Source of the DNA: Candidatus Margulisiibacteriota bacterium
Lineage (GTDB): Bacteria; Margulisbacteria; Termititenacia; Termititenacales; Termititenacaceae
Length of the DNA: 48,596 nt
NCBI GenBank assembly: GCA_031279305.1
Contig: JAITIS010000096.1
Location: 1-48,596, forward strand
Direction of reading: 5' to 3'
The notes below the pieces were generated by a model, which was not told where the DNA came from, did not search any database, and was given only the letters and a program-made list of their open reading frames with translations. How positions within the stretch are numbered: position 1 is the first letter of the stretch; each line of letters opens with the position of its first letter. Of the stretch, positions 5 to 47,147 are shown in pieces. The position numbers and the translations under genes were made by a program.

Positions 5-6160
<6,156 letters not shown>

Positions 6161-20225: not shown

Positions 20226-20560
20226 CGGTTTAGCCGGCCGTAAATCAAATGCGACGCCGCAAACTGATTAAGCCCGGTGTTAAATATGGCGATATTTTCC
20301 TGCGCGGCGCTCTGAAGCATATCCTCCGGTATGGTTTTGCCATTGCAGATGATGATGCCGGCGCAGTCGAGCAGCGAAGCCACGGCTACGGTGTTTTTAT
20401 GCGCCTGGATGGTGATGAGCAGGGCATTCTCGCCGGCGTTGGCCAGCACGTCGCTTAAAAGATCCGAGGTGTAGCCGTTTTTGATTTCTCGATCCTCGTA
20501 TTTTGCCTGCACCAGCTTCAGTTCAGGTAGTTTGGCCAGTTCGCTTGTTTTCATCAGCAT
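20222..20560 (-). CDS. DRTGG-domain protein
   Basis: The 112-aa sequence ..GYTSDLLSDVLANAGENALLITIQAHKNTVAVASLLDCAGIIICNG.. resembles DRTGG-domain proteins. AGGAG precedes the ATG. Confidence 0.7.
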   Translation of the reverse strand: MLMKTSELAKLPELKLVQAKYEDREIKNGYTSDLLSDVLANAGENALLITIQAHKNTVAVASLLDCAGIIICNGKTIPEDMLQSAAQENIAIFNTGLNQFAASHLIYGRLNR

Positions 20561-21482
20561 TCTCCTTTCCGGTGTTTATTATAGCGCGGACTTCCGTGCC
20601 TTTGCCCGGCGCCGACTGGATCTGAAAATCATCGGACACCCGGCGCACATTGGAAAGGCCCATTCCGGCGCCAAACCCCAGACTGCGGATCCAGTCATTG
20701 GCAGTGGAGTAGCCTTCCTGCAGCGCCAGCGCCACGTCTTTGATGCCCGGGCCGCGGTCTTTGGCGGCGATCTCGATACTGGAGCCGTTCACCGCCATAC
20801 TGATTTTACCGCCATCCGAATGAATGACCAAATTCATTTCCAGCTCGTAGGCCGCCACCGCCACGCGGCGGATCAGCTTCGCGTCAAAGCCTTTGCTCTG
20901 CAGGATTTTCTTAAATTCACCGGAAGCCACCCCGGCATCCTCAAAAGAAAATTTCTGGTGAATAAACTCTTTGTACACGCTGTAACTATTGACCTGCGCC
21001 GGAGCAGGCAGGAGTTTTTCCAGTTCGGCGACTTCTTTATTCATCTCGACCAGCAGTTTGTTGATAATATCCCGGCTGGTCACAATGCCGACCAGTTTGT
21101 TGTTTTTATCCAGCACCGGAAAAACCCGGAAATGATAGCGGTCAAAATAAGTGATTCCCAAACTAAGCGGCATATCGTCTTCCAGCACGATGACATTGCG
21201 CGTCATCTGGTCTTCGACTTTATCCTCGATAATTTTATTGTCCAGCGCGTGGATAATATCGCCGACCGTGATGATTCCAAAGAGCCGGCCGTTCTCCAGC
21301 ACCGGCAAAGCGGTCAGACCGTGCTCTTTCATCAGGGCCTGCGCGCGGCGCATAGTTTCGGCGCGGGAGATCGTGCACAGTTCTCTGGTCATCACATCGC
21401 GGATTTTTAGCGTATAGATCAGCTCTTCCAATAAAGAAGGGATTTTCTCGGACTGGCTTAAAGGAACCGTATTTTCCGGCAT
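20523..21482 (-). CDS. CBS-pair domain fused to a histidine-kinase-like ATPase (anti-sigma/Ser-Thr kinase type)
   Basis: The N-terminus has two CBS repeats (IRDVMTREL.., VEDQMTRNVIVL..). The C-terminus has GHKL motifs (ELEMNLVIHSDGG, DRGPGI, GFGAGMGLSNV). Confidence 0.85.
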   Translation of the reverse strand: MPENTVPLSQSEKIPSLLEELIYTLKIRDVMTRELCTISRAETMRRAQALMKEHGLTALPVLENGRLFGIITVGDIIHALDNKIIEDKVEDQMTRNVIVLEDDMPLSLGITYFDRYHFRVFPVLDKNNKLVGIVTSRDIINKLLVEMNKEVAELEKLLPAPAQVNSYSVYKEFIHQKFSFEDAGVASGEFKKILQSKGFDAKLIRRVAVAAYELEMNLVIHSDGGKISMAVNGSSIEIAAKDRGPGIKDVALALQEGYSTANDWIRSLGFGAGMGLSNVRRVSDDFQIQSAPGKGTEVRAIINTGKENADENKRTGQTT

Positions 21483-21529: not shown

Positions 21530-22300
21530 TTAAGACCCGGTCAATTTACCCAGCGCGCTTTTAACCGCGGCATAAATATCTTTTTTTTCGGACGCCGCTT
21601 TTTGCACAGTTCGCGTAAAATACGAGCCGACTACCACCGCGTGCACCAGCGGAGAGAGCGCTTTTATCTGTCCAGCCTTGTTTATTCCAAAACCGCCGTA
21701 TATTTCATAGCCGGCCCCGGACAATCCCCGCAAAAATTTTTTGACCGCCGCGGAAATAACCGTGTCCGCTCCGGTAATGCCGGTGCGCAAAGAAACATAA
21801 ATTTTTTTATAGGGCCTGAGCATTTTCAAACGCGCGGGAAGCATACCGGCAACAGCCACCGGCACCGGAGCAATGCCGTGTCTAAGCGCCAGACGGTAAT
21901 AGCCCTCGGTGTCCTCCAGCGGCAAATCCGGCGTGATAAGACCTTCCACGCCCGCGGCGCGCATATCCTTAATATATTTTTCTACGCCGTAGCGAAAAGG
22001 AATATTGGCGTAAGTCATCACCATAATCCGCTCAAACCCAGCGCCTCGCGCTATGCGTATATAATCAAAAATATCGACCGTGCGGAAACCAGAGCGCAGG
22101 GCGGACTCGCTGGCCAGCGTAATCGCCGGGCCATCCGCGCTGGGGTCAGAAAAAGGTATCTGTATTTCCAGTATTTCCGCGCCGCCGTTTCGCAAAGCGC
22201 CCGCCGCCGCGGCAAAACCCGCTCTGGATGGAAACCCGGCTACCAGATGCACCATCAGCCGCATAAACGCTCTGTCTCCTGCCGCAAAAATTCTAGCCAT
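21530..22300 (-). CDS. trpA: Tryptophan synthase alpha chain
   Basis: Motifs LVAGFP, LEIQIPFSDPSADGPAI and GFGI are present. The start is ambiguous: ATG at 22300, 22264 or 22255, and the last forms an ATGA overlap with the trpB stop. Confidence 0.88.
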   Translation of the reverse strand: MARIFAAGDRAFMRLMVHLVAGFPSRAGFAAAAGALRNGGAEILEIQIPFSDPSADGPAITLASESALRSGFRTVDIFDYIRIARGAGFERIMVMTYANIPFRYGVEKYIKDMRAAGVEGLITPDLPLEDTEGYYRLALRHGIAPVPVAVAGMLPARLKMLRPYKKIYVSLRTGITGADTVISAAVKKFLRGLSGAGYEIYGGFGINKAGQIKALSPLVHAVVVGSYFTRTVQKAASEKKDIYAAVKSALGKLTGS

Positions 22301-23475
22301 TCTTTTTTATACAGAGCCGGAGCCGTGATAAAAATATCTTTGTCGCCGCGGCCGGACATATTGATAACCGCTATTTTATTTTTAGGCAGCTGGGGAATTA
22401 TTTTTAAGGCCGCGGCTGCCGCGTGCGCGGACTCCAGAGCGAAAAGCAGGCCTTCGGTTCTGGCCAGACACCGGTAGGCGCGCAATACTTCGGCATCTTT
22501 GGCCAGCGTGAATTCTATACGTCCGCTGTCTGCCAGAGCCGCCAGCTCCGGTCCTATGCCGATATAGTCCAGACCGGCGGAGATAGAACGCGTGGGCTGC
22601 GCCTGTCCGTCCGCGGTCTGGACAAAACGCGATTTGTAGCCTTCGATAATACCCGCGGGACTATTACGGCAAATCCGCGAAGCGTGCTGGCCGGGTTTAT
22701 TGCCGGCGCCGCCGGCTTCCACGGCGATGAGCCTAGTTTTCTTATTTTTAAGAAAAGGCGCGAACATCCCAATGGCGTTGGAACCGCCGCCGCAGCAGGC
22801 GATAAGCACATCGGGCAGCCTCCGCTCCCTCTGAAATATCTGCTGTTTTAGCTCGCGTCCGATAACGCCTTGAAAAAATTTAACCATATCCGGATACGGG
22901 TAAGGCCCCAGCGCCGAGCCGATCAAATAATGCGCATCCGCATAACAGGCCGACCAGCGTTTGAGACAGGCGTTCACCGCGTCCTTGAGAGTCTTAGTTC
23001 CGTCATTCACTATATTGACCGCCGCGCCGTACTGCTTTATTAAGAAAACATTGGGCTGCTGGCGCGCCGCGTCCACCGCGCCCATAAATATTTCACAGCG
23101 CAGGCCCAGTCTAGCGCAGGCCGCGGCGACCGCCACGCCGTGCTGCCCAGCGCCGGTTTCGGCGATCACGGCAGTCTTGCCCATTTTTTTGGCCAGCAAA
23201 GCCTGACCGAGAGCGTTGTTTATTTTATGCGCGCCGGTATTGGCCAGTCCCTCCAGCTTGATATAGATTTTCGCGCTGCCTAGAGCGCGTGTTAGATTTT
23301 CGGCATAGAGCAGAGGCGTGGGACGCCCGGCATAATGCGTCAAAAGATCTTTATATTCCGCCAGAAATTTTTTATCTTTACGACACTCAGCAAAAGCCGA
23401 GGCCAAATCGACCAGCGCCGGTTTCAAAACCTCGCCGACATACTGGCCGCCGTACCGGCCAAAATATTCAGGCAC
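22255..23475 (-). CDS. trpB: Tryptophan synthase beta chain
   Basis: Motifs YFGRYGGQYV, LKLEGLANTGAHKINN and GGGSNA are present. The start was trimmed to the GTG at 23475, which lies 6 nt after GGAGG and overlaps the trpCF stop by 8 nt. Confidence 0.93.
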   Translation of the reverse strand: MPEYFGRYGGQYVGEVLKPALVDLASAFAECRKDKKFLAEYKDLLTHYAGRPTPLLYAENLTRALGSAKIYIKLEGLANTGAHKINNALGQALLAKKMGKTAVIAETGAGQHGVAVAAACARLGLRCEIFMGAVDAARQQPNVFLIKQYGAAVNIVNDGTKTLKDAVNACLKRWSACYADAHYLIGSALGPYPYPDMVKFFQGVIGRELKQQIFQRERRLPDVLIACCGGGSNAIGMFAPFLKNKKTRLIAVEAGGAGNKPGQHASRICRNSPAGIIEGYKSRFVQTADGQAQPTRSISAGLDYIGIGPELAALADSGRIEFTLAKDAEVLRAYRCLARTEGLLFALESAHAAAAALKIIPQLPKNKIAVINMSGRGDKDIFITAPALYKKEWLEFLRQETERLCG

Positions 23476-24838
23476 GCGCCACCTCCTGCACAAAGTCAAG
23501 CATTTTTTGCCGATCTTTAACCCCAGGACGCTTCTCCACGCCGGAACTGACATCGACCAGCGAGGGACGCATGCTCCGGATCATCCGCCGGATATTTCGG
23601 GGAGTCAATCCGCCGGCCAGCCATTGCCCCCGGATAAGCCTATGCTTCCGCGCAGGTATCCGCCGGCCTTTTACCAGCGCGCTGGTTTTGGGCGCGTCAT
23701 AGAGCGTCACCGGCAAAGCGCGGCGGCGCAGGTCAGCGGCAGCCAAATAGGCGCTGCCAGCCAGAGCATAAATATCCGCTTCATTATAAGTCTGCACGGC
23801 GTCGAGCAGTCCGGCGCGCAGCAGCTTTTTTATTTCCGGCGTCACTTTTTTAACCACAGCAATTTTTAAGATTTTTATATTCTTAACCGCGCGCAATAAT
23901 TCCGCGCTGGTAAAACGCGGCGAATCCGGCACAAAAATAAACCCGGCCGCATCCGCGCCGGCGCGGGCGGCCAGTTTTACATCGGCTTTATTTGTCAGTC
24001 CGCAGATTTTGACATAAATATTTTTTTTAGCGGCATAAAGTCTGGTGAAAAAATTGGGGGGCTGCCCAGCGCCGCGCCGGAGAGCATTTATAAAATTCCT
24101 GATTGTCCGCGCTCTGCCCGCCGCCCTGACCGCCGCTGTGCCGATCAGCGCGGCGCGAAAGCCCGCATTGCCGATGATTTTCAGCAGATAGCCAGTATTC
24201 ACACCGGATTCATATACTACCGGGACATTTGGCGGAAGATAGGCTTTCAGTCGCAACGGCCAGTCGGGCTGGATCTGAAAAGTCTGCAAATCGCGGGAAT
24301 TGAGGCCGATTGCATCAGGCAGATTTTTAAGTTTCAAGATTTTCTGCAGAGCCTGCAGACTGTGCGCTTCACATAGAACCTGCAATTTATACTTATGCGC
24401 TTCAGCAATCAGTGCTTGCAAAAGACCGCCGCTTAAAATCTCCGCGATCAAAAGCACAGCGTCTGCGCCGGCGCGGTAAGCATGCGCGATGTCTTCCGTG
24501 CAGAATAAGAAATCTTTACGTAAGAACCCCCAACGGGGATATTTTTGCTTGAGCCTGTACAAATCCGCCAGAGAACCTTGAAAATATTTATGCTCCGTCA
24601 GCACCGAAAAACGCCGGACGCCGCCGCGCCGGTAATCCCGCGCCAGCTGGTCATAAGAACAACCACCCAAGCGGCCCTCCGCAGGCGAAGCCCTCTTAAA
24701 CTCCGCGATGATAAACGTCCGCGGCCCGTTAAAAAACGGCGTCACGGGAATGGTTCTTTTCGGGAAACCGGCGGCCAGAGCGCGGTCGCGCGCTAAAGAT
24801 TTTCGGCGGTCAGACACTATTTTATCCAGAATATTCAT
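23468..24838 (-). CDS. trpC: Bifunctional indole-3-glycerol-phosphate synthase / phosphoribosylanthranilate isomerase
   Basis: The N-terminal half has IGPS motifs (IIAEFKRASPAEG, LRKDF). The C-terminal half has PRAI motifs (VKICGLT...AGADAAGFIFVPDSPR). Confidence 0.9.
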   Translation of the reverse strand: MNILDKIVSDRRKSLARDRALAAGFPKRTIPVTPFFNGPRTFIIAEFKRASPAEGRLGGCSYDQLARDYRRGGVRRFSVLTEHKYFQGSLADLYRLKQKYPRWGFLRKDFLFCTEDIAHAYRAGADAVLLIAEILSGGLLQALIAEAHKYKLQVLCEAHSLQALQKILKLKNLPDAIGLNSRDLQTFQIQPDWPLRLKAYLPPNVPVVYESGVNTGYLLKIIGNAGFRAALIGTAAVRAAGRARTIRNFINALRRGAGQPPNFFTRLYAAKKNIYVKICGLTNKADVKLAARAGADAAGFIFVPDSPRFTSAELLRAVKNIKILKIAVVKKVTPEIKKLLRAGLLDAVQTYNEADIYALAGSAYLAAADLRRRALPVTLYDAPKTSALVKGRRIPARKHRLIRGQWLAGGLTPRNIRRMIRSMRPSLVDVSSGVEKRPGVKDRQKMLDFVQEVARA

Positions 24839-24841
24839 CGC

Positions 24842-26437
24842 CTATTGCTGAATCAGCGGCTCGATGCAGCCGGATAGATTTTTCTCTGCGAAATCCCGGT
24901 AAATCCGCGCATAGCCGTCCTTGATCGTCCGGGCTTTGCCCAGCAGATACAGAGCCGCGCCGGCGTTCAAAGCCACCGCTGCGGCGACCGCTCTGTTCCT
25001 GCGCGACTTTAATCCGGCGCGCAGTATATGCAGAAAAAGCCCGGCGTTCTGGCGAGCGGTGCCGCCGCGCAAATCCTCTGTCCGAAAACCTTTGATCCCC
25101 AGTTCCAGCGGATCAAGCTTATAGGATTTTATTTGCCCGGCCGCGGTCAGCTCGCGGACACAGGTCTTGCCGCAAACACTGATCTCATCCAAGCCGGACT
25201 CGGAATGCACGACCAGCGCGCGTTTCAAGCCTAGTTTTTTCAGGGTCCGAATAAACAAATCCAGCAAAGATAGATCGTAAACACCGATTATTTGATAACC
25301 GACCTGCAAAGGGTTGATCAGCGGCCCCAGCAGATTAAACACCGTGCGAAATTTAACCTCCTGCCGCACGCGTCCGACATATTTCATCGCGGGGTGATAC
25401 AGCGGCGCAAAGAAAAACGCAAAATTATTTTTGCGCAGGCTTTTCAAATTGGCCGGCAAGTCGCCGTCGGTTTTGACCCGCAAAGCTTGCAAAAAATCAT
25501 AACTGCCCGAAGATGAAGTAAAGGCGCGGTTGCCGTGCTTGGCAACCGGCACGCCGTAATGCGCGCAGACCAGCGCCGCCGCGCTGGAAATATTGAACGT
25601 GTGCTGCTCGTCTCCGCCGGTGCCGACAATATCCAGCGCGTCCGGTCTTTTTTGTCTGCTGGTCATTTTCCGGCGCATCGCCAGCGCAAAACCGGACAGT
25701 TCTGCCGGCGAAATACCTTTGACCGCGCATCCGCCCAAAAAAGCCCCCAGCTGGCTGTCTGTCAATTCGCCGTCCGTTATCTCGTCCATAATCGCCGCCG
25801 CTTCTTGCTGTGTCAGGCTCCTAGCCAAAGACAGCTTGCGCAACAAAACCAGTTTCTGTGTTTCTGTTCTTTTATAATTAAGAAAATTCTCCAGCATTTT
25901 CAAGCCGCTTTCCGCGCTGAAAGATTCGGGGTGGAACTGCAGGCCTTCGATCTGATATTTTTTGTGGCGGACGCCCATTATAGACTGGTCGCGCGCGGCC
26001 ACAGCGGTGGTTTCCAGACAGTCCGGCAGCCTGGCCGGATCAGCGATCAGCGAGTGGTAGCGCACGATCGTCAGACCCTGCCTAAGATTACGGAAAAGGC
26101 CGCGTTCGTCGTGTTCGACAGCATCGGTTTTGCCGTGAATGATCCGCCCGGCCTGCACAACCGCCCCGCCAAAGGCTTCCACGATAGCCTGATGTCCCAA
26201 ACAGACGCCTAGTATCGGGATCTTGCCGGCAAAATATTTAATCGCCGCGACGCTGATGCCGGCCGCGGCGGGAGCGCCGGCGCCCGGAGAAATAACAATA
26301 TGCGACGGCTTTAATTTAGCTATGGCGTCCAGCGTAAGCGCATCATTGCGCGCGACGCGCACGGTGCAGCCTAGAGTTTGCAAATACTGCGCTAAATTGT
26401 AGGTGAACGAATCATAATTATCGAGCAAAAGAATCAC
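24842..26437 (-). CDS. trpD: Bifunctional anthranilate synthase component II (glutamine amidotransferase) / anthranilate phosphoribosyltransferase
   Basis: The N-terminus is ILLLDNYDSFTYNL..GVCLGHQ..HPES. The C-terminus is GTGGDEQHTFNISSAAALV..KHGNRA. The GTG start overlaps the trpE stop (GTGA). Confidence 0.9.
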   Translation of the reverse strand: MILLLDNYDSFTYNLAQYLQTLGCTVRVARNDALTLDAIAKLKPSHIVISPGAGAPAAAGISVAAIKYFAGKIPILGVCLGHQAIVEAFGGAVVQAGRIIHGKTDAVEHDERGLFRNLRQGLTIVRYHSLIADPARLPDCLETTAVAARDQSIMGVRHKKYQIEGLQFHPESFSAESGLKMLENFLNYKRTETQKLVLLRKLSLARSLTQQEAAAIMDEITDGELTDSQLGAFLGGCAVKGISPAELSGFALAMRRKMTSRQKRPDALDIVGTGGDEQHTFNISSAAALVCAHYGVPVAKHGNRAFTSSSGSYDFLQALRVKTDGDLPANLKSLRKNNFAFFFAPLYHPAMKYVGRVRQEVKFRTVFNLLGPLINPLQVGYQIIGVYDLSLLDLFIRTLKKLGLKRALVVHSESGLDEISVCGKTCVRELTAAGQIKSYKLDPLELGIKGFRTEDLRGGTARQNAGLFLHILRAGLKSRRNRAVAAAVALNAGAALYLLGKARTIKDGYARIYRDFAEKNLSGCIEPLIQQ

Positions 26438-27846
26438 AATTCCACCCCCAGCGCGTTAAGCGTCGCCCGCGCTTTATTCAGCGTTTCCAAATATTCTTTT
26501 TCCGGATCGGAATCATAAACGATGCCCGCTCCGGACTGCACCAAAAACCGGCCGTCCCGGTGCAGAATCGCGCGGATCGTGATGCAGGAGTCAAAATTGC
26601 CGTCAACGTCGAAATAGCCGATCAGTCCGGCGTACGGCCCGCGCCGCGCCGGCTCCTGTTCGGACACCAGCTCGATGGCTTTAATTTTCGGCGCGCCGGA
26701 GACTGTGCCGGCGGGGAAAACTCCGCGGATAATCTCCGGCAGACCGATATCCGGCAGTTTTTGCGCCTGCACTTCCGACACCAGATGCATCACGGAGGCG
26801 TAGCGTTCCACAAAAAAAGCTCTGGTCACTTTGACCGAGCCGGGCAGAGCCAGCCGCCCGGCGTCATTGCGCGCCAGATCGATCAACATCAAATGTTCCG
26901 CGCGCTCTTTTTCGTCCGCCAGCAGCTCTTTTTCCCAAAGCAGATCTTCCGCCGGCGTCCCGCCGCGCGGTCTAGTGCCAGCGATCGGCTTGATGGTCAG
27001 CGTCTCGCCGGAGAGCTTCACCATAATCTCCGGCGAAGCGCCGAACAGCTGAAAATCCGCAAAGTCCAGATAAAAAAGATACGGCGAGGGATTGGCGCGG
27101 CGCAGGCGGCAGTAGGCTTCAAAAGCCGGCAGCGCCGAACGCACCAGAAACTGGCGGGAAAGCACGCCTTGAATTAGATCGCCGCGGATAATCGCGCGTT
27201 TGATGTCTGCCACGCCGGCCAGATAAGCGGATTTCGGCGCATCCAGAACTATTTCCGCCGGATATTTTTGCCTATCCTGAGCGTAAGCCCGAAAATCGCT
27301 GTCTTCCAGCCTGCTGATATATCCGGCGATCTGCGTCTCCAAAAGAGCGGCGTCCTCGCCCAAAGCCACAATATGCAGGTCGTTGCGGTAATGATCAAAA
27401 ACAACAAAAGCCGAACCGAAAATAAACTCGGCTTCCGGCGTGTCAATAACCGCCGGTTTTACGGCTAGTTTGATCGTGTCGCAAAAACGGCAGAACTCAT
27501 AGCTCAAATAACCGATGCCGCGCGCCGGCAGAGGAAAAGGCAGTTTGGCAGCGGTGATTTTTTGCCCCCGGTCAGCCAGCGCGTCCAGAAATTTCCGCGG
27601 ATCACGGCTGACTACTCTGCTCTGTCCGCCGGATGTCTCCACAATGCCATTTCCGGTCAAGGCAATTCTAGTCTCTGCCGCCAGCACAATAAAAGAATAG
27701 CGCCCGGCGCCTAAATCAAGCGCCGCGGATTCCAAAAGAGCCAAGCCATTTAGTTTTTTGCAGACTACCACCGGCGTCACCCGGTCCGCGCTGATAGTTT
27801 TATAAATACACTGCACGCCGCACCTTGTTTCTATATATAGAAACAC
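26434..27846 (-). CDS. trpE: Anthranilate synthase component I
   Basis: Motifs LLESA, the chorismate-binding core GTVSGAPK and GAGIVYDSDPEKEY are present. The start is uncertain: GTG at 27846 (no SD) or GTG at 27816 (AAGG 6 nt upstream). Confidence 0.9.
   Translation of the reverse strand: MFLYIETRCGVQCIYKTISADRVTPVVVCKKLNGLALLESAALDLGAGRYSFIVLAAETRIALTGNGIVETSGGQSRVVSRDPRKFLDALADRGQKITAAKLPFPLPARGIGYLSYEFCRFCDTIKLAVKPAVIDTPEAEFIFGSAFVVFDHYRNDLHIVALGEDAALLETQIAGYISRLEDSDFRAYAQDRQKYPAEIVLDAPKSAYLAGVADIKRAIIRGDLIQGVLSRQFLVRSALPAFEAYCRLRRANPSPYLFYLDFADFQLFGASPEIMVKLSGETLTIKPIAGTRPRGGTPAEDLLWEKELLADEKERAEHLMLIDLARNDAGRLALPGSVKVTRAFFVERYASVMHLVSEVQAQKLPDIGLPEIIRGVFPAGTVSGAPKIKAIELVSEQEPARRGPYAGLIGYFDVDGNFDSCITIRAILHRDGRFLVQSGAGIVYDSDPEKEYLETLNKARATLNALGVEL
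27826..27845. promoter_or_regulatory. Perfect 20-bp palindrome at the 5' edge of trpE (candidate operator overlapping a -10-like TATATA)
   Basis: The palindrome is TGTTTCTATATATAGAAACA. On the minus strand, TTGGCC-N17-TATATA can be read across it. Confidence 0.45.
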
Positions 27847-27870
27847 TCTATCACGGCCAAGTTGGTTTCG

Positions 27871-30800
27871 TCAACCGTGGAAACCCCTGGGCTTTCCTGC
27901 CGCATCCGGAGACTGCGGCGCGGCGGCGGGCTGTCTGCTGAGAAAAATATGCGCCTGCGCTATCTTAACCAGAGACAAATAAGGCTGGCCGGCACTATCT
28001 TCCTCATAAAAAAAGCTGGCCGGAACGCGCTGAGACATTTTTGCCAATAATAGGGCCAGCTGAGCTTTGAATTCGGCGCTGACCAACAAAGCGCAGGATT
28101 GATAATTGCTCTCGATATGGCTGTCGTGGCCATAACCTTGTTCAGAATGTTTCACAATTGCCTCCGCATACTCCGGCGCAGACAGGCCGAATAAAGTCTG
28201 GAAATAATACGCTGTGTTTCGGTAATGCATTTTAGCCAGCGTAAACACCAGCTGTTTATAAACAAAATCCGCGGCTTCGTGGCGCTCATCGTGCGCGCCG
28301 TAGCCATTGATTATGGTATGGGTCAGCAATTCTTGATCCTGCCAGACCTCGCCGCCATAAACTTTAGAGCTCTCCAGGCATTGATTCGCAAGTTTTTGCT
28401 GCCAGTCCGCCGCGCTGAGCGGTTCATTGCCGTCTGGCATAACAATTTCCGGAATTAAGGCACTGTACAAAACCAGCAAATTTTCCGGCGTGAAATGCAA
28501 AACATTTTCCGCCAGACATTTGTAAATATACAGCCCTAAATTATCCAGATTTACCGCCTGCAAGTCTTCATTATTGTCCAAAACCAGCACGTCTCTATCC
28601 AGACAGACATTGTTTTTCTGCAGCAGATATAGGGTGTCTGCCAGTCTGGACTGTAGCACGGGACTGGCGGAAAAACGGGTTTCGCTGAAAACTTTTGTCC
28701 AGCCTTCTCCCAACTCCGGAAAATCAACAGTTTGCTCAGAGCGGACAATAGTCAGTTCATTTGGAAAAAACAAATCGATCAATTTGAACAAAGAGAGCGT
28801 TCGCCAATCATAGATTTTTTCATCGGAAATATTCTGTATGGTATTGAGTGTGCCATCGGCATTTTGGCCGCCTAGCTCCAAACGCTGAAAATGCCAATTT
28901 TTACAAGCCTCCGCAATAAGTTTGGCCAATTCTTCCCTAGAATAATAAAAAGGGCTGCCGCCGGACGCTGGCTGCACTTCATTCAAGAGCTCTTGAATAT
29001 ACTCGCCCTGTTTGGTCTGCCAGCGGTTATCATTAGCCAGCAGCAATTCATAAAATCCTTGATTTGATTTGGGCGCCTGGGCAATAATCAGTCGCTCATC
29101 TAATTCAGCGGTTTTGAGCCAGACCTGTCCGCCGCCAGCCTCCAGATAAAAAGAACTCTGCAAATACCGAAAAGGTTTTGGCAGCTCCACCGTCGCCGAA
29201 ACGCGCATTTTATGCGGATCCATTTTATCTTGTTCCAGAGTGAATTTGGTCACCGGCAGGTCGCTATTTGGCCTGCCGTGCTCGGACACAGACCAATCTT
29301 CTGCTGTTGGTTCATAACGCCGGCCGTTTAGCCATTCTTCATCGTAGCCCACATAGTGAAAATAAAGCTTAAGTTCCTGTACAAAAGCCAGCAGATCAAA
29401 ATTGATGCCGGATAAATCCGGATTTCCGGCAAAAAGCACCGAGAAACTCAGAGGCAACTCCCTATCGTAAGCCACGAAATTGATATGTCCGCCTTTAGAT
29501 AAAAGATAATCACAATAATCCAGTTCAACCACATTCAAGCCGCCGTACCGCGCATATACCTGCGCCAGCATTTCTGAAGTGCCAGCCAGCCACTCATCAA
29601 CGCTTTGGGGTATGGCAAAGCCGGTTTGTTGATTGGCAAAACCGCGGTAGAGTTTGTACAGCAGCAAATTCAGCTGCTCGGCGGATTTTTCTTGTTCTTT
29701 AAGCAACCCGTGCAGGGCATTTAGCGCTATATCCAATTCTATCGTTTGATCCGGACGCTTTTTCCGGTTCTGCAGATCTTCGACCATAGCGCGCATAATA
29801 CTGTGCAGAATTACCATCTCCTTGACCGGAGTCCGGGCAAAATATTCCCTGACTTTGGCGGTGATCTCCGCCACGTTTATTTTCTGCGCGGCGGTTTCGA
29901 GCGTGCCAAAAGGCTTGCGGTAAGCGGAATAATCTCCAGCCAATAACCGCCCCCGGTCTAGAACATCCGCCCAGCCGTCCAGCGTGCAAAAAGATCCTTC
30001 CGCAAATCTTTGTTCCCGCAAATAACCGCTGTTTAAGTAAAGCAGATTGCCTTTTAATTCTCTGCCGCCGAGCACTGCCACGCCCGGAATGCCTCTTTCA
30101 CGGGCAATACGCGCGTCGTGCATATTGCGGTTGCCATAAAAAGTCAACAATCCGTCAAAGTCCCCGTCATTTAAGGCCTGCAAATATTCTTGGGTGCGTT
30201 CCGGCACAACTAAAATCACCTTGTCTCCCTTGCGGCGGTATTCTCCGGCTTTTGCCAAGGAAAAAGCCAAGCGGCCGGCCACCACGCCAGGCGACAGACT
30301 TTCAGCTTTGACAACTCCAAGGGGCACATTATCCTGACGCAGCTGTTCCTCGTTTAGTTTGTAAATCGTCTGCTGCTTATCTTCCAGATAAGCCTCGGTT
30401 ACTTCCTGCACGGTAATCAGGCCTTGAGCAAACATATCGGCCATAATCTTCTGCCGGGCAAAATCGGGAATTTCCGCGTCACGGGTCTGCAGAATATACA
30501 GTTTACCGCGCTCAACTGTGAATTCCACTTCCTGAGGCCGGCGAAAATTTTTTTCTAATTTATTTTTTATCTCCGTGAACTGCGCAAAAAAATCCACCCC
30601 AACTGCTTCCGGGCCAAAATCCATTTCCACATTCATAAAATTCAAAATACGATATTCTTTGGCCGACCCGGTCATTGTTTCATCGCCGCGGGCATTGAGA
30701 TGGTATGTGCCGGAAATTTTATTCTCGCCAGTCTGCATATCTCTGGTATAGAATGCTCCGCTGCCGCTCATTTCTCCGGCATCACCGTACACCATTTCTT

Positions 30801-31257
30801 GAACAATAAGCGCTAGACCGCTTTCCGGCGCAATACCGTGTCTGGCGCGGTAATCAACCGCCACCGGATTGTCCCAGGAAGCATAGGCTTTTTGCAGCGC
30901 GGCTTTTAGGTCATCTCTGCTGCGGATAGCCAGCCGGGTTTCATATATCCCCGGCATAGTTTCTATGCCGGACGAACGCGCCGCCAGAGAGATTTGTCCC
31001 GGAAAATCCGGGAAACTAAGCATTACTTGTTCTAACAGCGCTTCCAGATCAATATTGCTCAGGCCGACCTTGTTAAAAAGTTCAGTTGTGAATATTAAAA
31101 ACTTCGGCGTAGCAATGCCTAGATTAAGCAATTCCAATAGATTGGCGCCTTTCTTGCCCTGCAATCCGGCGTTAGGTACCGGGCGCACAATAGAATCAGA
31201 ACGCAGGCAATAAGCGCCGTGGAGTGTTTTTTTCTGATCGCTAAAAGCATTAAGCAT
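27871..31257 (-). CDS. PEP-synthase/PPDK-like ATP-grasp and phosphohistidine swivel domains fused to a ~690-aa uncharacterised C-terminal region
   Basis: aa 30-260 carry the PPDK_N-type motifs GKKGANLLEL, AARSSG.E.MPG, IVQEMVYGD..SGSGAFYTRD and EVEFTVERGKLYILQTRD. aa 310-400 form the swivel domain GNRNMHDARIARERGIPGVAV, with the His380 codon at 30118-30120. No PEP/pyruvate TIM-barrel motifs follow. Confidence 0.8.
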   Translation of the reverse strand: MLNAFSDQKKTLHGAYCLRSDSIVRPVPNAGLQGKKGANLLELLNLGIATPKFLIFTTELFNKVGLSNIDLEALLEQVMLSFPDFPGQISLAARSSGIETMPGIYETRLAIRSRDDLKAALQKAYASWDNPVAVDYRARHGIAPESGLALIVQEMVYGDAGEMSGSGAFYTRDMQTGENKISGTYHLNARGDETMTGSAKEYRILNFMNVEMDFGPEAVGVDFFAQFTEIKNKLEKNFRRPQEVEFTVERGKLYILQTRDAEIPDFARQKIMADMFAQGLITVQEVTEAYLEDKQQTIYKLNEEQLRQDNVPLGVVKAESLSPGVVAGRLAFSLAKAGEYRRKGDKVILVVPERTQEYLQALNDGDFDGLLTFYGNRNMHDARIARERGIPGVAVLGGRELKGNLLYLNSGYLREQRFAEGSFCTLDGWADVLDRGRLLAGDYSAYRKPFGTLETAAQKINVAEITAKVREYFARTPVKEMVILHSIMRAMVEDLQNRKKRPDQTIELDIALNALHGLLKEQEKSAEQLNLLLYKLYRGFANQQTGFAIPQSVDEWLAGTSEMLAQVYARYGGLNVVELDYCDYLLSKGGHINFVAYDRELPLSFSVLFAGNPDLSGINFDLLAFVQELKLYFHYVGYDEEWLNGRRYEPTAEDWSVSEHGRPNSDLPVTKFTLEQDKMDPHKMRVSATVELPKPFRYLQSSFYLEAGGGQVWLKTAELDERLIIAQAPKSNQGFYELLLANDNRWQTKQGEYIQELLNEVQPASGGSPFYYSREELAKLIAEACKNWHFQRLELGGQNADGTLNTIQNISDEKIYDWRTLSLFKLIDLFFPNELTIVRSEQTVDFPELGEGWTKVFSETRFSASPVLQSRLADTLYLLQKNNVCLDRDVLVLDNNEDLQAVNLDNLGLYIYKCLAENVLHFTPENLLVLYSALIPEIVMPDGNEPLSAADWQQKLANQCLESSKVYGGEVWQDQELLTHTIINGYGAHDERHEAADFVYKQLVFTLAKMHYRNTAYYFQTLFGLSAPEYAEAIVKHSEQGYGHDSHIESNYQSCALLVSAEFKAQLALLLAKMSQRVPASFFYEEDSAGQPYLSLVKIAQAHIFLSRQPAAAPQSPDAAGKPRGFHG

Positions 31258-31362
31258 ATATAAATAATATACCCCGCCTAAAGATGAATATACAAATAAT
31301 CCCTGGCTGGATATCGTAAATTTAACCTGTAAATTGCGCGGCTTTTAAGCCAAATTTTCAAT

Positions 31363-31391
31363 TTGCCTACCGGCTTATTTCTTGGCATAAT
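31363..31391 (+). promoter_or_regulatory. Sigma-70-like promoter for yebC-ycdX-uvrA
   Basis: The element reads TTGCCT-N17-CATAAT, about 28 nt upstream of the ATG. GGAGG lies between it and the start. Confidence 0.4.
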
Positions 31392-31419
31392 AAACTCTCT
31401 CAAAGAAGCTGGAGGCTTT

Positions 31420-35746: not shown

Positions 35747-36661
35747 ACAATTCAACAAGAGTTTATTTGTAATCACTTTCTGTTTGCCCAGATACGCCTC
35801 GGTCAGCGCATTGAAACAGAGATTATTCACCTCGCGGGCTAGGCCGGCCGTGGCGGTGTAAATGACCTGATAGGTGTCCGGCTCAAACATTTTATCCGGA
35901 TCTCCTCCGGCGGTGCGGATGCGGAAGCGGATATATTCTTTCATTTCCGCAAAATCGAATGGCAGTAATTCTTCCTGCACATACATTCGGTTGCGCAGAG
36001 AATTGTAACTCTCGTGCTTGATGCGGCGCAGGAATATCTCCTCGGTAAAAAGCAGAATAGAGACCAGCTTCATCTCCGGCAGTTCGATATTGGAGATCGT
36101 GCGCAGGATATGCAGAGACGAAGCTTCCAAAAAATGCGCCTCGTCAATCATAATCACCAGACGCTTGCCTTTTTGGTAAAGGCCGATGACATAGTCCTGC
36201 AGAATGCGGATCATATCGTAAGTCTGAGTCACGTTTTTGAGCAGCTGTCCCAGCTCCAGCTCCAGCAGTATTTCTTTGAGCAGCGCCGACTTAGTCATGC
36301 CGGGCGAGACCAGCACCACGATGGTTTGGTATTTTTCTTGATCCAGCGTCATCAAAAGCAGCTGGGTGATCAGCGTTTTGCCGCTGCCGGACTGGCCGCA
36401 GACCAAGGCCAGTGAAATATTCTGCTCCACGCTCATTTTCATTTTTTGATAAATCGCATAGTGCGCCTTTGCCTTAAAAAAATATTTGGTGTTCACCGCA
36501 TCGCCAAAAGGATTTTCGGTCAGGCCGAAAAAAGACAACAAGTCCAGCGTGCTCAAGGCTTCTTTATCCAGCGTGGCCACCGCAGATTTACCCTGGGCTT
36601 CCTGCCGCCTCTCACTGGATAAAAATAGATGGGAAAAATCCTCGATCGACGAATTGCTCAT
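35741..36661 (-). CDS. ExeA/GspA/MshM-like AAA ATPase
   Basis: The sequence [20 protein letters not shown].. and Walker [13 protein letters not shown] follow the ExeA pattern. GGAGG lies upstream of the ATG. Confidence 0.8.
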
Positions 36662-36679
36662 AACATACCTCCAAAATTC

Positions 36680-36703
36680 CGCGCTGGCGTTTTTACCAGC
36701 GCG
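36680..36703 (-). promoter_or_regulatory. 8-bp-stem hairpin in the 5' leader of the ExeA-like gene
   Basis: The hairpin is CGCGCTGG-N8-CCAGCGCG. On the minus strand it ends 7 nt before the GGAGG RBS. Confidence 0.3.
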
Positions 36704-36853
36704 GGCACCATAGACTAACGTTTATCAATAAGGGCTGTCAAGCCGTGTTAAATAAAAATTAACTGGCTTTTTAAGCCTGCGCGTATAAATCGGCTCAAAC
36801 TGGGTAATAATCTGGCGTCAGACAATTTGAGTTTTTTAAGAGAGGGGTTTGTT

Positions 36854-37162
36854 ATGGAAAACTGCAATGATTATGTGAAATTTTTGCGGGCGTTAGCCAG
36901 TGAGGAGCGCTTGGGCATTCTGGAAGAGTTGGAAACGCACGGCGAGATCAATGCCACCGAGGTGGAGAAAAAATTTTTTATGGAGCAGTCCACCGCGTCC
37001 CATCACCTCAATATACTGTACAAAGCCGGCATTATCGAGCCGCGCAAAACCGGCCGGAACATTTTTTATCATATCAAAGAAAATTCTTTGCAGGATTTTT
37101 ACGGCCGTTTCCTAAAAGCGCTGGAAGAAAAACAGCAGGCGAAAGTCGCCGAAAACTGCTGA
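36854..37162 (+). CDS. ArsR/SmtB-family winged-helix transcriptional regulator
   Basis: The motif LRALASEERLGILEEL...ATEVEKKFFMEQSTASHHLNILYKAGIIEPRKTGRNIFY is present. The start was trimmed from the TTG to the ATG at 36854, downstream of GAGAGGGG. Confidence 0.85.
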   Translation: MENCNDYVKFLRALASEERLGILEELETHGEINATEVEKKFFMEQSTASHHLNILYKAGIIEPRKTGRNIFYHIKENSLQDFYGRFLKALEEKQQAKVAENC

Positions 37163-37180
37163 CCCGCGGCGGCGTTTTTT
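37147..37180 (+). terminator. Possible intrinsic terminator after arsR
   Basis: A short GC stem (CGCCG...CGGCG) is followed by GCG and a T6 run at 37175-37180. The stem is weak. Confidence 0.3.
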
Positions 37181-37434
37181 ACTAAACCTTGCGAACCATA
37201 ATCCACAAGGTGGGTCGCCGCCTTAAAGACGGTGTTAGCACTTCGGGAACAGCAACTAAAAAGTGAGCCGCCCACCAGAAGTCCCCGGTTTTTACACAGG
37301 TTCCAGGTCTAAAAAATAAACACGCGCGCCGCAGGCAAAATCGTTATAACATATTTCCGAAAATAACTTCAACCGGTAAATTTAAGGTGCTTATGTGTCT
37401 GACACGCCAAAATAAAACAACTTTTTATTCGTAT

Positions 37435-38417
37435 TTATATTTTCTGTATCAACACTCTTGCAAATCCCAATTTGCCATTTATGCAGGACTCATATCTTTT
37501 CTCTTGCGCTATTTTATATCCCTTTTCCAATAAACCGTTTAATATCGGGCGAGCAGATACGGCAAAAGGTTTTTTATAGTCATTCGGAATAAAACAATTA
37601 TCAACTAGCAATGTTCTTAAATCATCATATTTTTTATACTTTTCGGGGATATCTTTTAACGGCATTATTTTTAATTGCTTATATTTTGGTCTGTTTTTTA
37701 TAGGAATATTTGTAAACCAATAACCTGCCGCTCTGGCAAGTTCTTTTTTAGGAGTTAAAAACCAATCTACTTCATTAAATCCCGCCCATACTTTATTGTG
37801 CTGAAAATACGGGATATATGCCGTATTTATAGCATTTGATATGTTAGATATAATTAAAAACTTTTTCCGCTTTTAATAGTGGTGTTCCAATAGTCTATTG
37901 CTCTTGAAAACGGCGGGTTCGTGCATACGATGTCCGTCTCTTCATTAAGAATTTTCAATGAAAGAGGGTGGTCAAAACCGCCGGTATATCCATCCGGATA
38001 TTCTTTAAATTCCCTGAAACCATCTTTTGTAAATATATAACCTTTTGCTCCCTGATTGAACAAATCCACCACGCCGCTATAATGGGTACATATTATTTTT
38101 TTTAAGCCAATTTCATTGAAATGATGTATAAAATATAAAGCAAACGCCGAAGTATTTCTTTCATTATCTTCATCAACAGGGTCATCGCAGTTGCAAAACA
38201 CGGTCTTATTTTTCCAGATTCTTTTATCATACATTGACAGTTCTTTTTCAACATCTTCATATCTGGTATAAAATTCATCATTATCCACTCTCTTTGCCTT
38301 TTGCATTACATCTTTAGGCGACAATCCTCTTGCCTCAAGAGATGGAGTCGTTTTCTTTACTATCTTAACCATTTGATTTTTCTCGTCTGTTTTAATAAAT
38401 ATTTCCTTTACAAACAT
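37435..38417 (-). pseudogene. EcoRI-methylase-family N6-adenine DNA methyltransferase interrupted by a frameshift in a homopolymer
   Basis: The N-terminal frame ends ...DIVCTNPPFSRAIDYWNTTIKSGKSF* at 37854. The family continuation (K)KFLIISNISNAINTAY...YWFTNIP...IPNDYKKPFAVSARP runs in another frame that is open from 37872 to 37435. The two frames are joined by adding one base to the A5 run (T5 on the + strand, 37862-37866). Confidence 0.75.
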
Positions 38418-38448
38418 TTTGTGAGACTTAATAAATTGAACATAATTC

Positions 38449-38724
38449 TTAAACAAAACGGAATTGAAAAAATAAATTTCCTTGCTTTTTTTCCTCGCGA
38501 AGAACAGGAAAACTCTCTTTAACGGCATTTTCCAGCTGAGTCATATTCTTTACTTCGCAAGCGAATAGATACCTGTAAATATTTTCTTTGGACTTGCCAG
38601 TCATATTATTATATTCTTTTAATCGCCGCTCCAAGTCATTAGTCTTGCCAATCTTGCATTTTGAAGGTTCTAACAATGCTTGAACAATATAAATGTATTC
38701 TCCCGCCTCTTGATTACTTTTCAT
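38449..38724 (-). CDS. Small GIY-YIG (T5orf172-like) domain protein
   Basis: The sequence MKSNQEAGEYIYIVQALLEPSKCKIGKTNDLERRLKEYN...LENAVKESF carries GIY-YIG-type motifs. AGAGGT lies 6 nt upstream of the ATG at 38724. The longer ORF-track version (to 38892) was rejected. Confidence 0.6.
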   Translation of the reverse strand: MKSNQEAGEYIYIVQALLEPSKCKIGKTNDLERRLKEYNNMTGKSKENIYRYLFACEVKNMTQLENAVKESFPVLREEKKQGNLFFQFRFV

Positions 38725-38902
38725 TATTTTACCTCTAATTCCAATACACGCTGTTTTAATAATCCGGCGGAATTGTAAAATTGTAAATTCGTTAATTATA
38801 ATGCCTGCATTTTTAGTTGTTGACCACTGCTTGTTATGAGAAAGTTTTATGCAGGTTACCAGAGATATAAGCGCCAGATTTAAGGTTGACAAAAGACACT
38901 GT

Positions 38903-39604
38903 TTATCTGATCGGCTTAAAATTTTTGCTGGCTTTGCCGGTCAAGGTGATTTTCAAGAAATTCAAAATATTATGACCGATAAAACGCAGCGGGCCTTCCG
39001 CCAGCAGGCGGCGCGCGGAAGTGTGCGCGGCCATTTTTTTGTCATAAACCACCCGTCCCAGCTTGCGCACGCGCAGTCCCAGATCCACATCCTCCGCGGT
39101 GACCAGCTCAGCGCGGAAACCGCCGGCGGCGTCATAGGCGGTTTTGCGTATGGCAAAATTCTGGCCGGAGACATTGTCCCGGCGGATCAGCCGGCTCAAG
39201 CGCAAAAAAACCGTGTTGTAAAAAAAAGCGGCCAGGATTTTTAGCGGCGGAGAGCAGTCGCGCAGATAGACCGGGCCGTAAACGCAGACCACTTTGTCGT
39301 CCTCAAAATTTTTGGCGACGCGTTCCACCCAGATTGGATCTGGGGCGGTGTCCGCATCGGTGCAGGCGATGACCTCGCCGGTCGTCGCGGCAAAACCTTC
39401 GGCGCGGGCCAGAGCGATGCCTTTGCTTGCCTGCTTCACAACTTTCCAGCCAGCCTCCGCGCAGAGCCGCGGGGTCGAGTCTGTACTGGCGTCGATCGCC
39501 ACGATCTCAAAATCTTTGTAAGTTTGATTTTTCAGGGAATTAAGGCAGGGCGCTAGATATTTTTCTTCATTCATAGTGGGCACCACCACGGAAACTTTTA
39601 CCAT
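38903..39604 (-). CDS. Family-2 glycosyltransferase
   Basis: The motif MVKVSVVVPTMNEEKYL...NQTYKDFEIVAIDASTD...CTDADT is present. The start was trimmed to the ATG at 39604, 4 nt after GGAGG. Confidence 0.88.
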   Translation of the reverse strand: MVKVSVVVPTMNEEKYLAPCLNSLKNQTYKDFEIVAIDASTDSTPRLCAEAGWKVVKQASKGIALARAEGFAATTGEVIACTDADTAPDPIWVERVAKNFEDDKVVCVYGPVYLRDCSPPLKILAAFFYNTVFLRLSRLIRRDNVSGQNFAIRKTAYDAAGGFRAELVTAEDVDLGLRVRKLGRVVYDKKMAAHTSARRLLAEGPLRFIGHNILNFLKITLTGKASKNFKPIR

Positions 39605-39682
39605 AAACTCCTCCCTGACAAATAACCCCGCGGTTTTGGGCGCCGCGGGGTTATTATACACTATTCATCGCTGACCCGCGCT

Positions 39683-39970
39683 TTAACGCAGGGCTTTTTC
39701 GATCACATCCGCCATATTGCTGCGGTTTTTAGCTTTGGATATTTTTACCGAAAGATCGCCTTTCAGAAAAACATCGCTGACCCAAGCTGAAATATCGTTT
39801 TTGGCGGAATTAACGTGATAGCCATAAGTGCCGTCATCCAAGCCGCGCAGAATACCCGGCAGATCATTTAGATTGGAAACGACCTGTCCGTTGCAAAAAT
39901 AAAAGCGCTTGTCACCCTGCGCTTCATAACTGGTCTGTCTTGGTTTGCTTAATGTTTTGGTCTTAGCCAT
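39683..39970 (-). CDS. Small (95 aa) protein with a basic N-terminal peptide; possibly a DUF5752-like domain
   Basis: GGGGGAG lies 5 nt upstream of the ATG at 39970. The sequence begins MAKTKTLSKPRQ, followed by FYFCNGQVVSNLNDLPGILRGLDDGTYGYHVNSAKNDISAWVSDVF. The family assignment is from memory only. Confidence 0.6.
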   Translation of the reverse strand: MAKTKTLSKPRQTSYEAQGDKRFYFCNGQVVSNLNDLPGILRGLDDGTYGYHVNSAKNDISAWVSDVFLKGDLSVKISKAKNRSNMADVIEKALR

Positions 39971-40039
39971 TTTTCTCCCCCTCAATTGCTTTAGGGCCGC
40001 CCGCCAAACTTGTGACAGGCGGCTCAATTTCTCAAAAAA

Positions 40040-41353
40040 CTATTTTCTTTTTTTCGCTTTTTTCTTCGCCGGTTTTTTCGCGGCCTTTTTCGTTTTTTTC
40101 TTCGCCACCATTTTTTTCACCCCTTTCTTTGTTTTTTTCACAACGACCCTTTTGTCTTCCCGCCCCGCGGCGTTCGCCAAAAGTTTCAGTCGTTTGCGCA
40201 CATTTTCCAGCACGTTCATATAATTGATGAACGCGTCGTACGGCGATTTGTACGGCGAAAAATAACCGTGCACTTCGCCGTCGCCTAAATACTTAGTACT
40301 AATGTAGTACAAATGGTCGGCGGAAGTCAACCTTTTCCAGTCGTTTAATAAAATTTTGTTCTTGGTTTTTTTTATTTCTTTTTCCAGAGCGTAGAGATTT
40401 TGCGCGGCGTCTTTTTGCATATTGTTGCCGAGCCACGCGGATAAATCCTTTTGCGTGTCCGCCCAAGAGGTCGCGGCGGGAATATCGATTTCGCCGGCAG
40501 GCTTAAACCGCGCGGCTTCCACGGGAGTGATGAATTCTATCTTTTCGCTCTGCGCGGCTTCTTTGATAAAGCCGTGCAAAAATTCAAAAATATTTTCCGC
40601 CCTCTTGATATGCTCGCCAAAAGTTTCGTAGTCCACAAAAATATTCACCGCCGCGTCGCCGAGCTGTTCGATCCAGCGCAGATATTTAGCCGGCGTGAGC
40701 GGATAATCCGGCCAGAGCCGGTTGTTGTAACGAAAAGCCAGATCATCCGAGAGTTTGCAGTTGCGCAAAAGCAGTTTTATTTTGCCCGCGCCCGCCGGCT
40801 GGTAAACATAATTCGGCGAGCGCCAGCCTAGGATATGCTCCACGCCTTCCGCCAGGATGACCTCGTAGCCCAGCGCCTCCGCCATCCGCGCGATCTCATT
40901 GTCATAGATCAGTTCTGTGTTGCGAAAAGTTTTTGGCTCGTAATCAAACTGCTCCAAAAGCATTTCGCGGTGTTTTTCGACCTGTTCGATGAACTCTGTT
41001 TTGGAATACAGCGCGGATAGTGAATGATAATAAGTCTCCGACAAAAATTCCACGCAGCCGGTCAGCGCCAGCGCGCGAAAAGAAGCCAGCACTTCCGGCG
41101 CGTATTTTTGGAATTGCTCAACCGCCGTGCCGGTAATGGAATACGCCACTTTGAAGCGGCCTTTGTATTTTTTGATCAGCTCTAACAGCAGCTTATTGGC
41201 CGGCAGGTAGCAGTCCGCCGCGATGGATTGAATAATCTGGCGGTTTTTTTCGTCGTCAAAATAATATTGATCGCGCTCCGCGCTGAAAATCGTGTATTTT
41301 TTTAAGCGGAAAGGCTGATGCACCTGAAAATACAGGCAGAGTTTAGCGGGCAT
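40040..41353 (-). CDS. Glycoside hydrolase family 57 enzyme with a C-terminal lysine-rich (AKKPAKK) tail
   Basis: The GH57 N-terminal signature is LYFQVHQPFRL. The last ~40 aa are KRVVVKKTKKGVKKMVAKKKTKKAAKKPAKKKAKKRK. The gene overlaps the GT4 gene by 11 nt. Confidence 0.85.
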   Translation of the reverse strand: MPAKLCLYFQVHQPFRLKKYTIFSAERDQYYFDDEKNRQIIQSIAADCYLPANKLLLELIKKYKGRFKVAYSITGTAVEQFQKYAPEVLASFRALALTGCVEFLSETYYHSLSALYSKTEFIEQVEKHREMLLEQFDYEPKTFRNTELIYDNEIARMAEALGYEVILAEGVEHILGWRSPNYVYQPAGAGKIKLLLRNCKLSDDLAFRYNNRLWPDYPLTPAKYLRWIEQLGDAAVNIFVDYETFGEHIKRAENIFEFLHGFIKEAAQSEKIEFITPVEAARFKPAGEIDIPAATSWADTQKDLSAWLGNNMQKDAAQNLYALEKEIKKTKNKILLNDWKRLTSADHLYYISTKYLGDGEVHGYFSPYKSPYDAFINYMNVLENVRKRLKLLANAAGREDKRVVVKKTKKGVKKMVAKKKTKKAAKKPAKKKAKKRK

Positions 41354-46059: not shown

Positions 46060-46062
46060 AGT

Positions 46063-47133: not shown

Positions 47134-47147
47134 AATAAGTTGCTCCT

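Follow-up and report, generated by a model that had tools for sequence, protein, structure and literature searches.

A PPDK-type phosphohistidine relay joined to a very large orphan C-terminal region, encoded next to the trp operon of a Margulisiibacteriota contig

We analysed a 48,596-nucleotide (nt) stretch of DNA from Candidatus Margulisiibacteriota bacterium (contig JAITIS010000096.1, positions 1 to 48,596; hereafter the window), in which a gene on the minus strand at 27871-31257 encodes a protein of 1128 amino acids (aa). An initial annotation, made from the letters of the DNA, had described the product as a phosphohistidine relay of the type found in phosphoenolpyruvate (PEP) synthase and pyruvate phosphate dikinase (PPDK), followed by a domain that could not be recognised. 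Pfam and hhalign analyses bore out this architecture: an ATP-grasp domain and a swivel domain with its His residue are followed by a C-terminal region that could not be recognised and that contains no PEP/pyruvate barrel. It is unusual for a dikinase relay to be combined with an orphan region, here one of very large size. The protein appears to have evolved from a short-form PPDK, of which the two-domain relay was kept, with about 650 unique residues in the place of the barrel. Judging from sequence and model comparisons, we give about even chances to the reading that it is a functional, lineage-specific dikinase-type enzyme, in which ATP would charge His380 and the swivel domain would deliver the phosphoryl group to an acceptor set by the C-terminal region. 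A further step, that the C-terminal ~650 residues form a new fold and a new acceptor-binding or catalytic domain, and that the protein founds a new class of PPDK-derived dikinases, is put forward tentatively, as something that may well turn out otherwise.

The N-terminal part of the protein exceeds the Pfam cut-offs for PF01326 (PPDK_N; 85.8 bits, cut-off 27) and, just, for PF00391 (PEP-utilizers mobile domain; 25.5 bits, cut-off 23.1). The ATP-grasp nucleotide-binding domain covers aa ~17-262 (30472-31209, minus strand), is of the PPDK type without the helical insert according to PF01326 and the alignment to PPDKs, and contains the motifs that had been listed for it, GKKGANLLEL at aa 34-43, AARSSGIETMPG at aa 92-103, VQEMVYGDAGEMSGSGAFYTRD at aa 152-173 and EVEFTVERGKLYILQTRD at aa 243-260. 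A helical linker follows (aa ~263-312; 30322-30471, minus strand), which aligned to the PPDK linker and was modelled by AlphaFold2 with helices at 265-277 and 283-304. The phospho-histidine swivel (central) domain was assigned to aa ~313-437 (29947-30321, minus strand) from PF00391 and from its match to 2fm4, the phosphoryl carrier domain of PPDK (E 6.6e-8 by sequence, TMt 0.85 by fold). The swivel motif claimed earlier, GNRNMHDARIARERGIPGV, lies at aa 375-393. It includes the predicted phospho-accepting residue His380, the counterpart of PPDK His455, which stands in an invariant His column of the alignments and whose codon occupies 30118-30120 on the minus strand (31257 - 3x379). A post-swivel helical segment at aa ~438-494 (29776-29946, minus strand) still weakly resembled the PPDK linker, as well as a metagenomic protein, P0058, described below, and had a predicted local distance difference test score (pLDDT) of 37-64.

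The relay was more closely related to PPDK than to other dikinases. Solved PPDK structures (1dik/2r82) aligned with aa 113-438 at E about 1e-43 to 1e-45, and a weaker stretch placed aa 31-111 on PPDK residues 17-109. From this placement, the protein lacks PPDK residues ~110-199 (C. symbiosum numbering), which form the helical insert subdomain. The best database matches were PPDKs of 750-765 aa from metagenome-assembled genomes of Chloroflexota and Dehalococcoidia, in which the insert is missing with identical boundaries. A model of aa 1-520, built by AlphaFold2 on a 45-sequence alignment, had a mean pLDDT of 75, with values mostly of 80-95 over the ATP-grasp domain. When this model was searched with Foldseek, PPDK structures came first (1kbl, E 1.4e-29, TMq 0.67), while rifampin phosphotransferase (RPH) and PEP synthase were found only at ~1e-12 (2ols, 8e-12). 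This ranking indicates that the relay is specifically PPDK-derived, not PEP-synthase- or RPH-like. The order of the domains, ATP-grasp, swivel and then a third domain, is also that of PPDK, and the tblastn alignments of PPDKs ran weakly on through the helical linker, ending at aa 465-494.

The third domain of PPDK, the PEP/pyruvate TIM barrel (PF02896), was not found in the protein by Pfam, in agreement with what had been claimed. In hhalign, the C-terminal region matched a barrel profile made from 20 PPDKs with a probability of 0.1%, while the N-terminal positive control gave 100%, and tblastn with whole PPDKs detected no remnant of a barrel in any frame of the window. A divergent but ordinary PEP-utilising barrel was therefore rejected as the identity of the C-terminal region.

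The orphan region was placed at aa 495-1128 (27874-29775, minus strand) and was searched as aa 440-1128 (27874-29940). Because the similarity to PPDK fades at aa 465-494, the unmatched part comprises about 635-690 residues; the earlier estimate of ~690 aa thus holds as to the lack of any match in the libraries and is refined as to the length. A word-indexed search of these 689 residues against 5.8e9 clusters returned the query itself alone, and so did an exhaustive phmmer search against 1.84e9 representatives. No match was obtained at E<=10 among the PDB sequences, in NCBIfam or in PHROGs, and Pfam at the same threshold, with the whole of aa 440-1128 and three pieces of it, gave just a HisK-N-like hit at E 0.28, which is noise. 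Neither the complete protein nor its C-terminal region matched a defence family of PADLOC-DB at E<=1. GTDB genomes, JGI metagenomes and IMG/VR viral contigs were covered by pattern scans, which found no relative of the region, and tblastn found no match to it on plasmids and phages. No characterised substrate domain was recognised in any of these libraries. By these searches, about 15 billion known proteins include no detectable relative of the C-terminal region. AlphaFold2 with the single sequence of the region yielded an unusable model (pLDDT 35), and Foldseek gave nothing below E=1 with it, a result that is meaningless given the model quality. According to the same low-confidence model the region is mostly helical and beta-rich near aa 669-724. 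Its composition is that of an ordinary globular protein, and neither internal repeats nor transmembrane segments were seen in it.

The absence of relatives does not reflect a spurious reading frame. The claimed open reading frame (ORF) at 27871-31257 proved intact, with an ATG start and 1128 codons before a TGA stop at 27871-27873, and it is not a chance ORF, since chance does not produce a stop-free run of this length in DNA of ~49% GC. With codon log-odds derived from 19 of the window's native genes, which themselves gave +0.26 to +0.33, frame 1 scored +0.16 to +0.33 across all 120-codon windows of the gene, and frames 2 and 3 were negative everywhere. The N and C halves had equal synonymous-codon scores and nearly the same GC content at the first, second and third codon positions (0.59/0.38/0.51 and 0.57/0.35/0.52, respectively). 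From the likeness of the halves in third-position GC (GC3) and codon bias, and from the continuous frame-1 signal, this is one gene and not a chimera, and its C-terminal region is real coding sequence. For the same reasons it is very improbable that an error of assembly or gene calling brought a fragment of PPDK together with unrelated DNA: the contig comes from one metagenome-style record, seen once, and the region is matchless, but there is no frame break, the coding signal is continuous over the junction, the PPDK-like linker similarity continues past the swivel to aa 465-494, and the flanking genes are syntenic and intact.

The retention of catalytic residues was evaluated with 118 PPDKs, in which 104 columns of the N-terminal and central domains are >=97% conserved. 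The protein keeps 60 of these near-invariant positions. Among those kept are K36 (K22 in PPDK), R94 (R92), M101-P-G103 (G101), E245 (E323), Q257 (Q335) and R259 (R337), and K22, R92, G101, E323, Q335 and R337 are established ligands of ATP, Mg and phosphate in C. symbiosum PPDK. PPDK D321 is replaced conservatively by Glu243. As these residues and H380 are retained at an identity of 32-34% to the PPDK relay, continued selection on catalysis is suggested. The relay thus looks catalytically competent on its residues, and a working phospho-relay in this protein is plausible.

If so, the ATP-grasp domain would bind Mg-ATP, and, through a pyrophosphoryl-His intermediate like that of PPDK, the beta-phosphoryl group would pass to His380 of the swivel domain, with release of AMP and Pi or PPi. 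The swivel domain would then rotate on its two linkers and bring the phosphoryl group to whichever acceptor the C-terminal region binds. The operation of such a relay without the barrel is plausible because VadK (Rv1127c) of M. tuberculosis, a barrel-less PPDK derivative, autophosphorylates its swivel residue His422 with Mg-ATP (PMC13400623). PPDK-type relays also serve many acceptors, as in RPH, HpeHI, CreHI and PpsAB (PMC12167813, PMC4844700).

One relative of the module by architecture was found. P0058 (ENA ERZ24794666, L161, 2499-8288) is an unannotated metagenomic protein of 1929 aa, which aligned with our protein at 28% identity over 529 aa (E 8e-46), the alignment reaching aa 519 of the latter. 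No other match listed contains a PPDK-type module that lacks both the barrel and the insert. The two proteins have in common the derived substitutions D159, S166, E243, A261, I263 and A361, as well as an acidic residue after the His and the loss of the second Gly of the swivel loop (TQYGHEALH in P0058). The post-swivel segment alone matched P0058 marginally (E 0.04). The module of P0058 lies near its C-terminus and is preceded by a signal-peptide-like start (judged by eye), a DUF2200 domain and HEAT/Arm-like repeats; outside the module, P0058 is unrelated to our protein. Other genes on the contigs of P0058 are large and unannotated, and one contig has 40% GC. The top 120 matches of a two-sequence profile built from both modules consisted entirely of ordinary PPDKs, with no further members above them. 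The shared substitutions suggest that the two proteins form a distinct family, and their different surroundings hint that barrel-less, insert-less PPDK relays may be a recurrent building block with varied partners.

Several observations weigh against a functional dikinase. The remaining 44 of the 104 near-invariant PPDK positions are altered. The swivel loop motif T/SxxGGxxxH is found across the dikinase family (PMC12167813), and PPDKs have TxxGGxTSH at this place. In our protein the loop before the His reads T372-F-Y-G-N-R-N-M-H380: the Thr, the first Gly and the His are kept, the second Gly is Asn376, and the His-orienting GGxTSH has degenerated to GNRNMH (G376N, T378N, S379M). The domain-docking residues R219 and E271 of PPDK are replaced by V132 and T184; they are two of the three sites in the R219E/E271R/S262D mutant of PPDK, which, as the title of 2r82 has it, adapts a second conformational state. 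Codon adaptation is below that of the neighbouring genes, with a synonymous-codon log-likelihood of +0.08 versus +0.10 to +0.23 in native genes and a GC3 of 0.51-0.52 versus 0.56-0.68 in housekeeping reference genes. No Shine-Dalgarno sequence was visible before the ATG when 31258-31418 was read directly, so the translation signals look weak. Finally, the protein is a singleton, and what is said of its C-terminal region has a single-sequence basis. Taken with the retained ligands, the altered docking residues may be explained if the relay was selected for its chemistry while domain docking was remodelled, which would fit a changed third docking partner.

The singleton status has in part a simple cause. 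At 90% identity among about 15 billion proteins, UvrA, AsnB and GH57 of the window each stand alone, TrpGD shares its cluster with one other sequence, and all four were seen on this contig only. The source lineage has been sampled once, and close orthologues of the protein are lacking for this reason. The single sampling does not explain why the C-terminal region has no distant relatives at all.

An alternative that we consider unlikely, yet the best of the rivals, is that the protein is a regulatory phospho-His protein like VadK, whose output would be the regulation of a partner or a sensed state, and that its C-terminal region serves as a scaffold, a sensor or a partner-binding part instead of an active site for small molecules. 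VadK gives a precedent, since it has lost the barrel, phosphorylates its swivel His and, by contacting them, regulates enzymes of the methylcitrate cycle (PMC13400623). The family of Rv1127c-type proteins, NF004531, was the second-best NCBIfam match (E 9e-36). Helices dominate the predicted structure of the C-terminal region, in which no catalytic motif was recognised, and the module of P0058 is embedded among HEAT/Arm-like repeats. On the other hand, the NF004531 score was 123.5 bits versus a cut-off of 456, so the protein is not an orthologue of VadK; VadK has no appended domain, and the helical prediction comes from the model with pLDDT 35.

The deviations listed above would also suit a relic or pseudo-enzyme, that is, a PPDK duplicate that lost its barrel and is drifting, with a relay that does not turn over and a product that is non-functional or non-catalytic. 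Only 60 of the 104 positions are kept, the GGxTSH loop is degenerate, GC3 (0.51 versus 0.58-0.68 in native genes) and the codon score are low, a Shine-Dalgarno sequence is not visible, and the singleton has no family. However, 1128 stop-free codons with a continuous frame-1 bias are unexpected in a decaying gene, and every known ATP, Mg and phosphate ligand survives at 33% identity. The derived substitutions shared with P0058 suggest a tolerated functional variant and not random decay. We regard decay as decidedly unlikely.

The surroundings of the gene bear on its origin. Downstream on the minus strand lies a trp operon, trpE, trpGD, trpCF, trpB and trpA (21530-27846; Pfam, NCBIfam), in which trpG-trpD and trpC-trpF are fusions. 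Upstream and divergent are yebC, a PHP-domain gene and uvrA (Pfam, NCBIfam). The 24-nt distance from the stop codon to trpE in the initial annotation holds for the first possible start, GTG 27846. The homology to TrpE begins about 10-20 residues after this codon, and AAGG, a Shine-Dalgarno sequence, stands 6-7 nt before GTG 27816; the start is therefore probably GTG 27816, with a gap of 54 nt. A promoter-like site, TTGACG-18 nt-TAGAGT with an upstream TG (27845-27874, minus strand; consensus match only), overlaps the stop codon of the gene and faces trpE, and the consensus promoter scan reported no terminator-like site between the two genes. Thus trpE may be transcribed alone, by read-through from the upstream gene, or in both ways. 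No Rfam family was found anywhere in the window, hence no T-box, trp leader or riboswitch. On the other side, the divergent intergenic region up to the ATG of yebC at 31419 (31258-31418) is AT-rich by direct reading (GC 0.41). A -10-like TATATT at 31266-31271 was read 8 nt ahead of the ATG of the gene, and the promoter consensus scan made no call there; the transcript may be leaderless or near-leaderless.

Conservation of this neighbourhood had been proposed as a check, and the arrangement with trpE did not recur in 160 related loci, none of which has a homologue of the gene near trpE. The nearest trp operons (L001, L002, L081, L083) share the order trpE-GD-CF-B-A with different upstream genes, and have neither a homologue of the gene nor yebC beside trpE. 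The nearest TrpE sequences in GTDB and JGI, from a Spirochaetia metagenome-assembled genome and metagenome contigs, were only 46-47% identical. The link with trp is adjacency alone, functional coupling being unsupported, and this adjacency is no evidence for an aromatic or tryptophan-related substrate.

There is a small chance that the gene arrived by horizontal transfer as an accessory gene, for instance of a defence or conflict system, inserted between yebC and the trp operon, with the C-terminal region as a fast-evolving effector or sensor. GC along the gene is 0.45-0.48 versus 0.54-0.61 in the flanks, its codon usage lies between that of native and clearly foreign genes, and the nearest trp operons lack both a counterpart and yebC beside trpE. 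Conflict systems typically hold large orphan multidomain proteins. Against such an origin, nothing matched in PADLOC or PHROGs, nor in viral contigs, phages or plasmids, and no tRNA, flanking insertion repeats, integrase, mobility genes or partner genes were found around the gene. The genes at 37.8 kb and 46-48 kb are clearly foreign (GC3 ~0.33); unlike them, it has a codon bias that is positive relative to the host, and its composition, though a little atypical, is far from theirs.

Other features of the window were recorded. Two stretches, 36000-40000 and 46000-48596, have a GC content of 0.36-0.43, a gene GC3 of ~0.33 and negative codon-adaptation scores, and are probably foreign or mobile DNA by their composition; an EcoRI-methylase-like fragment lies at 37854-38528 within the first. 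A second very large orphan of 1619 aa is encoded at 5-4864 (plus strand), and Pfam assigned no family to it at E<=1e-5. It is rich in Leu, Ala, Glu and Gln, coiled-coil-like, with a hydrophobic stretch near aa 170-200; the C-terminal region described here is unlike it, and it is unrelated to the gene at 27871-31257 and to the contig of P0058. Directly downstream of trpA and on the same strand, 20523-21482 (minus) encodes tandem CBS domains with a HATPase_c histidine-kinase-like ATPase. The gene at 42803-43885 (minus) encodes a fusion of a ParA/MinD-type ATPase (AAA_31, CbiA) with an AMPK1_CBM glycogen-binding module at the C-terminus, and it directly adjoins genes for a glycogen-synthase-like GT4/GT5 protein and a GH57 protein (41343-42755 and 40040-41353); from this context, the product could be a positioning ATPase for glycogen granules.

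The relay of an ATP-grasp domain and a swivel His is among the few known routes to phosphorylate unreactive acceptors, at a cost of two phosphoanhydride bonds. Earlier acceptor domains each brought new biochemistry, with pyruvate, rifampin, phenols, starch and prodigiosin precursors, and regulation by VadK is the latest addition. If active, the protein described here would stand for a class of substrates not seen before, probably with a new fold, and for a second, independent repurposing of PPDK after loss of the barrel. Its value is limited for now because it is a singleton from a lineage sampled once.

When compared with the known systems, the analogy to RPH and to glucan, water dikinase in the initial annotation holds for the mechanism only, as the relay is specifically PPDK-derived. 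RPH, HpeHI, CreHI and PpsAB catalyse the reaction of ATP and an acceptor to AMP, Pi and the phospho-acceptor (PMC4844700, PMC12167813), and HpeHI, CreHI and PpsAB are phenol kinases that combine the relay with a foreign acceptor domain (PMC12167813, PMC4844700). They share with our protein the three-part logic of an ATP-grasp domain, a phospho-His swivel and a separate acceptor domain, which is putative in our case. However, they belong to the PEP-synthase/RPH type (Foldseek 1e-12, versus 1e-29 for PPDK), and their order is ATP-grasp, substrate domain and swivel, whereas here the swivel directly follows the ATP-grasp domain and precedes the C-terminal region, to which the RPH-type substrate domain has no similarity. 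Membership of RPH was rejected on this order and on NF041857, which gave 32 bits versus 999 and matched aa 101-181 of the N-terminus only. PEP synthase was rejected likewise (TIGR01418/NF005057, 40-47 bits versus cut-offs of 598-740; 2ols at 8e-12). NF052631 and NF052632 matched weakly and at the N-terminus only (24-28 bits versus cut-offs of 1300-1350). Glucan, water dikinase and the prodigiosin ligases PigC, RedH and HapC differ from our protein in domain order and in their appended domains.

The closest comparison is with PPDK itself and its derivative. Short PPDKs of ~750-765 aa (P0002, P0004, P0028; EC 2.7.9.1) have in common with our protein the order of ATP-grasp and swivel, the absence of the insert and the catalytic Lys, Arg, Glu, Gln and His residues. 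PPDK has the PF02896 barrel and GGxTSH, whereas our protein has GNRNMH and, in place of a barrel, ~650 unrelated residues after the swivel; its score with the PPDK family TIGR01828 was 175.7 bits versus a cut-off of 843.45. VadK orthology was rejected on the low NF004531 score and on an architecture that continues past the swivel, and the loss of the barrel in the two proteins would have been independent, or the two are very distant. VadK and the protein described here are both PPDK-derived, with the relay kept and the PEP/pyruvate domain gone, but VadK stops after the swivel at about 490 aa, while our protein carries ~690 further residues.

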